Sequence record: PQ657772.1 | Origin: Escherichia phage EC.P1 | Strand: one strand, 5' to 3' | DNA length: 64,000 nt | Shown: positions 36,901 through 42,943 of the stretch, piece after piece | How positions within the stretch are numbered: position 1 is the stretch's first letter | How the letters are laid out: each line of letters begins with the position of its first letter | Notes under the pieces: model-generated | The model's database searches: none | Told to the model about the DNA's origin: nothing | The model's input: the letters and a program-made list of their open reading frames with translations, nothing else | Made by a program: the position numbers and the translations under genes

Positions 36901-39630
36901 TTAATGCCAACGTGTACCAGAGCTTGAAGGAACACCAGAACTTGCAGGGATAGCAGAACCACGCTTAGTTGTACTAGGTCTGTATGTCAAGAATCGTGTT
37001 ACCTTTTCAGTATCAATTGACGTAATACTCGTACTTCCAGTAACAATATCACCAACATATACGTTTGTCAATGTCTCATCAAGAAGAGTTGTACTGATAA
37101 CGTATGCCGCTTTTCTTGTGTTACGGTTCATTTGAATGTAAAGATAAAAAGTACTGTTAGCTGGGTTAGTTTTAATAGTACTTAATTCTATGGTTTGAAT
37201 CGCTAATCTATCAAACATACCACCAAGGAATACCGGAACTTCACGGGTGAAGTACACAGTGAAACCTTCAGCAACATCTTGTGAAACTACTACGATTTTA
37301 TCTTGTACTGTTCCTGAACCATCAATCAACCCATCCATCTGTGTTGATGTTGTCCCAAAGAGACTAAACACTGCTTTAGTTTGATAATCTGAATCTTGAA
37401 GATGATAGTATCCAAATCCAACACCTGGTATAACTCCGTGCTGGAATGCATTGCCATTATCTATGTAGCTGGATGACATAAATCGGTTAGATGTAATCAA
37501 ACCATTCACTGTTTTAGCAATCATCAATTTGAATTGAGCATTACCAGGTTGTGAAAACTGATGAACTGCATCAACACCAATATAACCAAAACCAGAATAC
37601 TTAGCAACAGTTAGACCAGTACAGCGTTTCATATAGGCTTCGGTTACAATACCTGTTACAGAATTAAGTGTTTCGTATCTAGAACTCACCATAGACGCAG
37701 AACTAATATTGGTTCCTGAAACCGTGACATCAACTTCAGAATATATTGCATAACCTTGGTTATTGCCTAAGTTATATGCAGAAACCACCGCAATAGATTT
37801 TGAGAAAGAACTATCTGGTACATAATATAAAGCAATTTTACCAGAAAATGCTCCTACTATTCCAATATTAGCAAGTATTTCTTGTTTTAATGTTTCCAGA
37901 ACATTATCACCAATTGTATAAGAACCATCAAATTCTAAAGTATCTGGGTTAAACAAACCACCACTTGTTTTGTATACACCTTCAATGAATGATGTCCCAT
38001 AACATTTAACTGAACCGTCAGTATCAATTAATGAAATCATACCTGTATATTTGTAGTTGTCGCCGAGGCGAGTTCGGTTGGCTTGTGGTGCAAAACCATT
38101 AAGTGTTGTATTGTTTTGTACTGAATTGAACTGGAAGGTTGGATCAGTACCAATTTCAGAAAATACTGTATTGTTATAACCATATGACTCATCTTCATAT
38201 GTTCCAGAACATGCTAACAGTACTTTACGTTTATCAATAAAACGTGTTCCTAAAAGGTTTTCGCCTACTGCACTACCATATGTTGGTGCAACGTTTACAA
38301 ATTTGGAATTGTTCGCTTTACGAGTACTGGCAACCCAACTATCATATGGTGTTCCTGTTACGTTATAAACCTGAATACCATAGGTTTCAGATGAACTCCA
38401 ACGAGCACGTGTGCTGAATACTAAACCGTCATAGGTTTGGCATATAGAACCAACGTTGCCTAATTGCGGAACACCTAACTGTGTACCCATGAAGTTATTC
38501 ATCTCAATGGCAAATGGGTTTGTTAGTGTGAATCCATCAACATCATTATATTCCGCTGCTATTGGTGCTCTACTACTTCCATCAATTGATAATGATTTAG
38601 AGTTGATAGTATAAACAAAACTAAAACCACTAGCATAAACAGTACTAATATATAGATTTGATACTAAACGGTTAGTTGGGAATAATGTAATTCTAATCTT
38701 TGATAAATCTGGACTTACGTTTGCTTGTATATTATAATCTGTATAATCTGAATATTCAACTCGTGTAACTGGTGAAGTGCATTCAAATAATGAATCACTA
38801 CTAGTTCCAACTGAATATAATCTTTCATAAATTTTCAAATTATTAGCACTTGTGTAGTTAACACTTCTTAAGGTTTGACCAGAAAAACCAGTAACCTTAG
38901 CAAAAGTACTCATAGTACCATCTTTAATACTACTTGTATTAACAGTATATAATGTTAAAGCCAAACCATAGTTTGCTATAGTAGTGTCTTTGCACCACAC
39001 AAATACTTTATCATTAACGATATGTGCATACAATGGTTTATCTGTACCAAATGATGTAGCAGCGATAGAAGCGTGAATATGTGCAACTTCGTTAAATGTA
39101 CCATTTGTTAAAGTGAAAATATAATTACTTGCACTAGATAGGCTAACTAGTAATTCATAACCATTCGTTCCGATGAACTGTTTAACATTTTCAGTACTTG
39201 GAAGAATTCTCGGATGATATTTTGATGTAGTACTGATAACACTACTTTGTGTTAGTGCATCAATATTACGCAAATCACGAATGAATGCATAGTAATATCC
39301 TTCAGTACTACCATTTGTACCAGCACGTAATACCACACCAGTACCATCATCTTCGACTATTGTTGGTTGCATACGGTATACATCTGAAAGCGACGTTGCC
39401 CCTTCGTATGAACCATTAACGTTTAATGGTAGATAATCCATTTCCCCTATACGGGAGATTGGTAACATATCAAGTATTTTTTGAACTTCTGATCTTTTAT
39501 AAATTGGATAGTCAACAATACCTGTATTTGCGTCTGGTGCTGTACCATTAAAAGTACGCATAGCGTACTTTCCACCAATTGCCAAATTTCCAAGTATAGC
39601 AGCACTACCAATGATGCGTTTGGATGACAT
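36901..39630 (-). CDS. tail-fibre-like protein, paralog (909 aa)
   Basis: Large Ser/Thr/Asn/Gly-rich protein; shares N- and C-terminal blocks with 40247..42943. Confidence 0.6.
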   Translation of the reverse strand: MSSKRIIGSAAILGNLAIGGKYAMRTFNGTAPDANTGIVDYPIYKRSEVQKILDMLPISRIGEMDYLPLNVNGSYEGATSLSDVYRMQPTIVEDDGTGVVLRAGTNGSTEGYYYAFIRDLRNIDALTQSSVISTTSKYHPRILPSTENVKQFIGTNGYELLVSLSSASNYIFTLTNGTFNEVAHIHASIAATSFGTDKPLYAHIVNDKVFVWCKDTTIANYGLALTLYTVNTSSIKDGTMSTFAKVTGFSGQTLRSVNYTSANNLKIYERLYSVGTSSDSLFECTSPVTRVEYSDYTDYNIQANVSPDLSKIRITLFPTNRLVSNLYISTVYASGFSFVYTINSKSLSIDGSSRAPIAAEYNDVDGFTLTNPFAIEMNNFMGTQLGVPQLGNVGSICQTYDGLVFSTRARWSSSETYGIQVYNVTGTPYDSWVASTRKANNSKFVNVAPTYGSAVGENLLGTRFIDKRKVLLACSGTYEDESYGYNNTVFSEIGTDPTFQFNSVQNNTTLNGFAPQANRTRLGDNYKYTGMISLIDTDGSVKCYGTSFIEGVYKTSGGLFNPDTLEFDGSYTIGDNVLETLKQEILANIGIVGAFSGKIALYYVPDSSFSKSIAVVSAYNLGNNQGYAIYSEVDVTVSGTNISSASMVSSRYETLNSVTGIVTEAYMKRCTGLTVAKYSGFGYIGVDAVHQFSQPGNAQFKLMIAKTVNGLITSNRFMSSSYIDNGNAFQHGVIPGVGFGYYHLQDSDYQTKAVFSLFGTTSTQMDGLIDGSGTVQDKIVVVSQDVAEGFTVYFTREVPVFLGGMFDRLAIQTIELSTIKTNPANSTFYLYIQMNRNTRKAAYVISTTLLDETLTNVYVGDIVTGSTSITSIDTEKVTRFLTYRPSTTKRGSAIPASSGVPSSSGTRWH

Positions 39631-42943: not shown

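Follow-up and report, generated by a model that had tools for sequence, protein, structure and literature searches.

Three paralogous genes behind nrdG in an Asteriusvirus-type jumbo coliphage and their probable role in host recognition

A trio of paralogous genes at one locus

The 64,000-nucleotide (nt) window of Escherichia phage EC.P1 analyzed here (PQ657772.1) carries, just downstream of nrdG, three tandem genes that we call A, B, and C. As described in the initial annotation, which was made from the sequence alone, they are open reading frames (ORFs) on the minus strand, two of about 900 amino acids (aa) and one of 195 aa (Table 1). We propose that A, B, and C probably form a fixed trio of paralogous virion proteins belonging to the host-recognition apparatus of the tail or baseplate. 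Over the 6-kb region, the window shares 99.5% identity with the Escherichia jumbo phages WPEC3, fEgEco12, and Ecwhy_1 and about 76% with the PBECO4/121Q/phAPEC6 group; the source of the window is an Asteriusvirus-type jumbo coliphage. These Asteriusvirus relatives are 'Rak2-like' myoviruses of about 350-385 kb, and almost all of their records label the three genes 'hypothetical protein'.

Pairwise alignment of the three proteins gives E-values from 2e-53 to 4e-17, similarity far above chance, and A, B, and C are paralogs, as originally claimed. A and C align over their full length with 26% identity (E 2e-53). The last ~120 residues of B match the C-termini of C (32% identity, E 4e-22) and of A (E 4e-17), and its first ~65 residues match the corresponding N-termini (E 2e-4 and 2e-5, respectively). 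By region, the identity between A and C is 42% at aa 50-100, 33-50% in the last ~150 aa, and 16-30% in the center. The shared termini singled out in the initial annotation are indeed where identity peaks, but the long proteins are homologous along their whole length and not at the ends alone.

The N-proximal motif reads LPISHYG in A, LPLSQYG in B, and LPISRIG in C, and the proteins end in GSSFPVSYGLPSQTGTINW (A), GSSFPVSTGNPTQTGTLGW (B), and GSAIPASSGVPSSSGTRWH (C). Both of the motifs originally proposed, LP(I/L)S.YG and the C-terminal G(S)xxPxSxGxPxxxGT..W block, are exact in A and B, whereas C has I for Y in the former and, in the latter, the W one residue earlier, followed by H. Profile searches assign A and C to phrog_3573 (E 7e-263 and 1e-230, respectively) and B to phrog_26864 (E 9.5e-84 over aa 1-195), and all three match phrog_7449; these families comprise jumbo-phage proteins of unknown function. 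Searches of A, B, and C against Pfam and NCBIfam returned no match, the sole Pfam line (DUF5484, E 0.14) being noise. Among the ORFs of the window there are no further family members besides A, B, and C; an 887-aa ORF on the minus strand (11451-14114), considered as a fourth paralog, is unrelated to the trio.

The spacers between A, B, and C measure 12 and 16 nt, and each gene has an AAAGGA-type ribosome-binding site. Given these sites in short spacers and the terminator-like hairpins on both sides, the three genes appear to constitute one insulated, terminator-bracketed transcription unit. The gap upstream of A holds no sigma-70-like promoter match. A T4-type late promoter was considered at this position, where the match is only 7/8 and no common extended motif is seen at two other occurrences; we make no claim for it. 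The T4-type late-promoter octamer itself, TATAAATA, is depleted, with 0 occurrences in the 64 kb versus 8.9 +/- 3.2 expected from shuffles.

Table 1. Features of the A-B-C locus, with positions in the window and protein coordinates where applicable
Feature	Position	Strand	Description
Gene A	40247..42943	-	898 aa, long paralog; orthologue of GAP32_143, BF gp141, and phAPEC6 gp323c
Gene B	39647..40234	-	195 aa, headless paralog; positional orthologue of the ~912-aa GAP32_144 and of BF gp142
Gene C	36901..39630	-	909 aa, second long paralog; orthologue of GAP32_145 and BF gp143
B segments			N-terminal aa 1-67 (LPLSQYG at aa 59-65) and C-terminal domain aa 77-195
C segments			LPISRIG at aa 56-62; C-terminal domain aa 787-906
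A aa 1-63	42755..42943	-	Conserved N-terminal segment, predicted local distance difference test (pLDDT) 32-56 per 10-residue block; proposed docking/oligomerization peptide
A LPISHYG (aa 54-60)	42764-42784	-	End of conserved N-terminal segment
A aa 80-770	40634..42706	-	All-beta body modeled with confidence, fold matches to beta-propellers; proposed to bind the ligand; B lacks it
A aa 774-898	40250..40624	-	C-terminal beta-sandwich and disordered conserved tail GSSFPVSYGLPSQTGTINW; common to B, C, EL gp114/gp115, and SPN3US gp168
Terminator-like hairpin	42997..43015	-	AAGCACCCAATGGGTGCTT then T-run; directly after nrdG; upstream edge of the A-B-C unit
Gap upstream of A	42944..42996	-	Ribosome-binding site AAGGGA; ATAAATAC, 7/8 of T4 late box (candidate)
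Terminator-like hairpin	36872..36893	-	AAGCTCGTC-TATT-GACGGGCTT then T-run; directly after C; downstream edge of the unit

Origin and conservation of the headless gene B

Three paralogs of ~900 aa occupy the same place after nrdG in Mimasvirus (GAP32, CBB) and in Eneladusvirus (Serratia phage BF, Yersinia phage fHe-Yen9-04, and Erwinia phage pEa_SNUABM_12). Orthology is 1:1:1 across the three genera, with gene order kept: A is 44% identical to GAP32_143 and 45% to BF gp141, and C is 38% identical to GAP32_145 and 40% to BF gp143. For B, aa 1-67 match aa 1-67 of GAP32_144 (43%) and aa 79-195 match its aa 794-912 (44%), and the comparison with BF gp142 gives the same pattern of two matching ends. 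Since the two segments of B correspond to the start and the end of the ~912-aa middle protein, B is the middle paralog minus about 727 internal residues, the propeller-containing body (described below) having been lost in the Asteriusvirus lineage. This agrees with the initial description of the 195-aa protein as conserved ends with the center deleted. The diverged Asteriusvirus A4 (A 53% identical) has the long-short-long arrangement as well, while Mimasvirus and Eneladusvirus are long-long-long.

B keeps its ~195-aa length across 29 clusters, defined at 90% identity and reaching down to 41% identity, and 22 positions are invariant. The ratio of nonsynonymous to synonymous substitution rates (dN/dS) of B relative to phAPEC6 is 0.19. 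For C, the ungapped dN/dS is inflated by internal indels, and the figure was not used. Because its length is kept at such divergence and its dN/dS is low, B is a working gene under purifying selection and not a remnant. B was also considered as a tail fiber assembly chaperone (Tfa) and rejected as such: it has no Pfam, NCBIfam, or PHROG chaperone match, is itself a paralog of A and C, and has a long orthologue that is a virion protein.

Short members of the family are not limited to this locus. At E-values up to 1e-3, a profile of the B family matched 496 clusters, represented at the 50% identity level. Of the 144 top representatives that were new in this search, 55 (~38%) have a length of 260 aa or less and 80 exceed 800 aa, and many of the short relatives carry the same LPxSx(Y/F)G motif and a W-terminated tail. 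A metagenomic contig (Logan ERR13715895, 1-3980) carries a long member and, behind it, a tandem pair of headless members of ~235 aa. Erwinia phage Special G encodes a 420-aa protein, gp18, that consists of an N-terminal anchor domain and a C-terminal domain with no body, and it adjoins the long gp19 and gp20. Headless paralogs retaining both putative interaction ends are thus widespread. The tandem pair of the metagenomic contig, with LPVSQFG at about aa 97, represents a second size class of headless paralogs.

The initial annotation had noted that such arrays usually reflect receptor-binding diversification. By its 1:1:1 orthology and the gene order kept over three genera, this array is instead an ancient and fixed triplet, and not a recent duplication of the type expected under ongoing diversification. 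Each paralog keeps its orthologous identity across the three genera without concerted evolution, which argues for non-interchangeable positions, as in the phiKZ complex discussed below.

Within the coliphages, the array diverges more than its surroundings. The A, B, and C proteins share 85%, 72%, and 73% identity, respectively, with their phAPEC6 counterparts, compared to 88-97% for the flanking genes. At the nucleotide level, identity is 63-84% across the array (36842-43000) versus mostly 90-98% in the adjoining genes, and it falls from 98% to 76% at position 36842, at the terminator after C. The synonymous divergence (dS) from phAPEC6 exceeds 1 in the array and is 0.13 in the next gene; this difference argues for recombinational replacement rather than relaxed selection, and the profile points to a swapped cassette with a recombination edge at 36842. 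Array identity among coliphage records falls into two discrete classes, at 98% or higher (8 records) and at 60-80% (26 records). The two cassette alleles provide a natural swap experiment.

Virion data, predicted structures, and relatives

Published mass spectrometry data place orthologues of the trio in virions; virion mass spectrometry was among the checks named in the initial annotation. The A orthologue of phAPEC6, gp323c, was identified in purified virions from 4 peptides that cover 5.6% of the protein (PMC7247149), and the B and C orthologues GAP32_144 and GAP32_145 were found in virions of GAP32 (PMC5259590, supplement S5). The same supplement lists no RaK2 homologue of the trio. In phAPEC6 (MK817115, locus L002), the orthologues of C (6001-8730) and B (8747-9334) are intact ORFs that are unannotated in GenBank. 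As these genes were never called, the published virion proteome could not have detected their products. A further protein of this phage, gp314c (1-1993 of the same locus), is a 'tail fiber protein' of 105 kDa detected by mass spectrometry, and its gene lies downstream of the array at a distance of about 4 kb. The 64-kb window contains no homologue of it, so the neighborhood varies in fiber-gene content between Asteriusviruses.

The structures of A and B were predicted as monomers with AlphaFold2. The model of A (pLDDT 85.7, predicted template modeling score 0.80) is a compact all-beta multidomain protein. Its body, residues 80-770, is packed with confidence, and a small beta-sandwich (residues ~775-865) follows; at the two ends, residues 1-63 and 868-898, confidence is low and the chain is disordered. 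A fold search with A returned beta-propellers, including the phi11 receptor-binding protein (RBP; 5efv) and the endosialidase of phage phi92 (4hiz). Both are phage host-recognition proteins with a beta-propeller body, as is proposed for A, but they differ from it in domain order and show no sequence similarity, and the fold scores are low and generic. The model of B has a pLDDT of 71, with residues 70-165 at about 90 or above on average and both ends disordered. Its fold matches are weak beta-sandwiches (E 0.015-0.3): the lactococcal p2 RBP (E 0.015), Mtd, SPP1 gp22, an HFTV1 baseplate protein, and the A-1(L) tail fiber. The best of them for the C-terminal domain of B, namely the p2 RBP shoulder domain, SPP1 gp22, and the Mtd beta-sandwich, reach E 0.015-0.07 and template modeling (TM) scores of 0.3-0.4, below the confident threshold, and the matched domain is N-terminal in the p2 RBP but C-terminal in B. 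Predicting the C-terminal domain, another check proposed at the outset, yields a small beta-sandwich with only weak matches to those of RBPs and fibers. Against PDB sequences, B gives only E~1 matches to BLIP-II/RCC1-like repeats in its N-terminal segment, which are not significant.

Given the compact all-beta propeller model, the proteins are probably not fibrous, and the initial label 'tail-fiber-like' is better read as 'receptor-binding-protein-like'. The model contains no fiber, but the association with tails that the label implied is supported by the orthologues found in virions, by the occurrence of the module in phiKZ-like tail proteins, and by the position of the genes in what is the fiber slot of RaK2, as described in the following paragraphs.

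With tblastn, the family is found in 160 jumbo-phage records, where the annotation, if given, is 'virion structural protein' or 'minor tail protein'. An A-like module follows an N-terminal domain homologous to those of phiKZ gp131/133-135 in EL gp114/gp115, SPN3US gp168, and Special G gp19. In EL gp114/gp115, for example, the match to phiKZ gp131/135 covers aa 9-261, and the matches to A lie at aa 270-412 and 1056-1176. Mutant proteomes identify SPN3US gp168 as a tail protein (PMC5105663). A matches the module of these phages with E-values of 1e-8 to 1e-14 by BLAST and down to 1e-29 by profile. The relatives EL gp114/gp115, SPN3US gp168, and Special G gp19/gp20 (PHROG 7449/3573) share two stretches with the trio, one made up of the LPxSxYG segment and the first beta domain (A aa 53-183) and the other corresponding to the C-terminal domain (A aa 774-898), and they too occur in tandem paralog arrays. 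They differ from it in the gp131-like anchor, which spans ~250 aa in EL and Special G and ~aa 22-155 in SPN3US gp168, whereas the trio has only a ~50-aa leader there; no anchor match was found in Special G gp20. Some of them also have extra C-terminal extensions, and the central bodies are barely alignable.

Comparison of A, B, C, and their profiles with phiKZ gp131-135 by BLAST, hidden Markov model (HMM) searches, and hhalign gave no match (E 0.4 or higher), and the same three methods detected no homology between the trio and phiKZ gp145 or gp146. The ~260-aa gp131-like N-terminal domain, which forms the hetero-hexameric fiber base, is absent from A, B, and C, in which only about 50 aa precede the shared motif. 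Lacking detectable similarity to gp131-135, the trio thus does not belong to this family in the strict sense, and it shares with other phages a module that is fused there to the family's anchor. A crystal structure of the C-domain of phiKZ gp131 was reportedly described by Sycheva in 2012. In phiKZ, the N domains build a hetero-hexameric base of three gp131 and one each of gp133, gp134, and gp135, and twelve fibers sit on the baseplate periphery with the gp131 propeller distal (2026 atlas, PMC13250141); transposon insertions are absent from all of gp131-135 (PMC12676376). Like the trio, phiKZ gp131-gp135 are tandem paralogs of unequal length that include a very short one (gp132, 110 aa). With their common N-terminal module, co-assembly, distal beta-propeller, and apparent essentiality of each paralog, they may serve by analogy as a good model of how fixed paralogs with shared ends build one fiber.

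A second comparison concerns the genomic position. In RaK2 (NC_019526), the tail-fiber/depolymerase cluster ORF525-534 (322764-345682) starts right after nrdG and ORF524; NrdD, being ubiquitous, was of no use for finding this locus by tblastn. The products gp526-gp534, together with gp098, have been found experimentally to form an adsorption complex (PMC10253068). The RaK2 cluster occupies the same slot as the trio in Asteriusvirus, Mimasvirus, and Eneladusvirus, directly downstream of nrdD-nrdG in a related jumbo phage, but it is unrelated in sequence and encodes beta-helix-type depolymerases in a nine-protein fiber. As proven adsorption genes of RaK2 lie directly after nrdD-nrdG, the slot after nrdG would by analogy be the host-recognition cassette site of this phage group.

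Possible role in host recognition and neighboring genes

Taken together, these observations favor a fixed trio of virion proteins in the host-recognition apparatus, and a mechanism can be suggested in which each part has a separate function. The ~60-aa N-terminal segment ending in LP(I/L)Sx(Y/I)G would dock the protein to the virion or to partner subunits. The ~700-aa beta-propeller-containing body, present in A and C only, could bind or possibly cleave a cell-surface saccharide, and the ~90-aa C-terminal beta-sandwich with its GSxxPxSxGxPxxxGTxxW tail may act as an oligomerization or partner-binding module at the distal end. Having kept both interaction modules, B would most likely still assemble into the same structure as a headless subunit. 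A more specific version, in which A, B, and C make up an obligate 1:1:1 heteromeric receptor-binding unit held together by the N- and C-terminal modules, with one chain reducible to a headless form as a general building rule for jumbo-phage fibers, is doubtful. If true, it would account for the many lineages in which long and headless members occur together, with phiKZ gp131/132/133-135 and Special G gp17-20 among them.

Several points weigh against the assignment to the host-recognition apparatus. We infer the placement in the tail and the binding of a receptor, as well as the polarity of the proteins, the heteromeric stoichiometry, and an effect on host range. The detection of gp323c in phAPEC6 virions amounts to the few peptides mentioned above, and CBB_147-149 were not detected by mass spectrometry in CBB virions (PMC5259590, supplement S5). 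The genes are located among those of nucleotide metabolism, distant from the main structural module. Besides the missing match to phiKZ gp131-135, A and C show no similarity to PDB sequences in single-sequence or profile searches, the fold matches of A are generic for propellers with low TM-scores, and its monomer model has no fibrous or obviously trimeric element, neither coiled coil nor beta-helix. Finally, conservation is highest at what is presumed to be the distal end, an unusual pattern in a specificity determinant.

Other explanations have to be considered in the light of the same data. A and C could be tailspike-like enzymes, that is, propeller glycosidases or lyases that degrade O-antigen or capsule, in place of lectin-type binders. 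This overlaps with the assignment to the host-recognition apparatus and differs from it only in biochemical activity; the fold scores of the A model do not tell a lectin from an enzyme, and neither sialidase Asp-boxes (S-x-D-x-G-x-x-W/F/Y) nor a Pfam glycoside hydrolase or sialidase signature is found in the proteins. We consider such an activity rather improbable. We give a similarly low probability to the trio being structural or decoration proteins, at the baseplate periphery or as anchors of the 'hairy' whiskers of phAPEC6 and CBB, with no direct receptor role. The presence in virions is silent on function, the whisker genes of phAPEC6 and CBB are unassigned, and a conserved 1:1:1 triplet does resemble a fixed structural complex. 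However, GAP32 has the trio and only CBB and phAPEC6 have been reported to bear whiskers, a hair of 119 nm cannot be reconciled with the compact propeller model, the raised divergence and sharp recombination edge of the cassette are those of host-interaction modules, and the locus is common with the RaK2 fibers.

A location outside the virion is much harder to reconcile with the data. The proteins might then, for example, act inside the cell or modify the host surface; they would be expressed together with the nucleotide-metabolism genes and merely co-purify, as the position between nrdG and small early-looking genes, the low phAPEC6 peptide counts, and the non-detection in CBB might suggest. 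Yet the orthologues were found independently in virions of two phages, SPN3US and EL-type phages carry the homologous module within genuine tail proteins, and terminator-like hairpins insulate the unit from both neighbors, making this explanation very unlikely. We find it hardest of all to credit that B is a decaying remnant of the middle paralog without a function of its own; the initial annotation had allowed for a recombination remnant or an adaptor. The loss of about 727 internal residues would be in keeping with decay, but the ORF is intact and has its own ribosome-binding site, its conservation in length and sequence is that of a selected gene, and headless forms have arisen independently in other phage lineages, where they are common.

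Tandem arrays of paralogous receptor-binding proteins in the baseplate or tail of jumbo phages are already known; what is added here is the wide distribution of headless paralogs and the identity of the locus with the RaK2 fiber slot. The assignment of A, B, and C to host recognition would tie the trio to the fiber modules of EL, SPN3US, and Agricanvirus as well as to the RaK2 fiber locus, and it would provide specific targets for efforts to engineer the host range of therapeutic jumbo coliphages. The commonness of headless paralogs points to a modular assembly rule for jumbo-phage fibers, which the recent phiKZ atlas began to show.

Downstream of the array, three small tandem paralogs of 188, 173, and 169 aa (35230-36830, minus strand; PHROG 18641 and 7868, function unknown) form a conserved neighbor of the trio. 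They lie behind a sigma-70-like promoter with an 11/12 match (36882-36854), which would drive them. At the corresponding position, Eneladusvirus has one weak homologue (BF gp144, fHe-Yen9-04 g140), and phage A4 has three copies.

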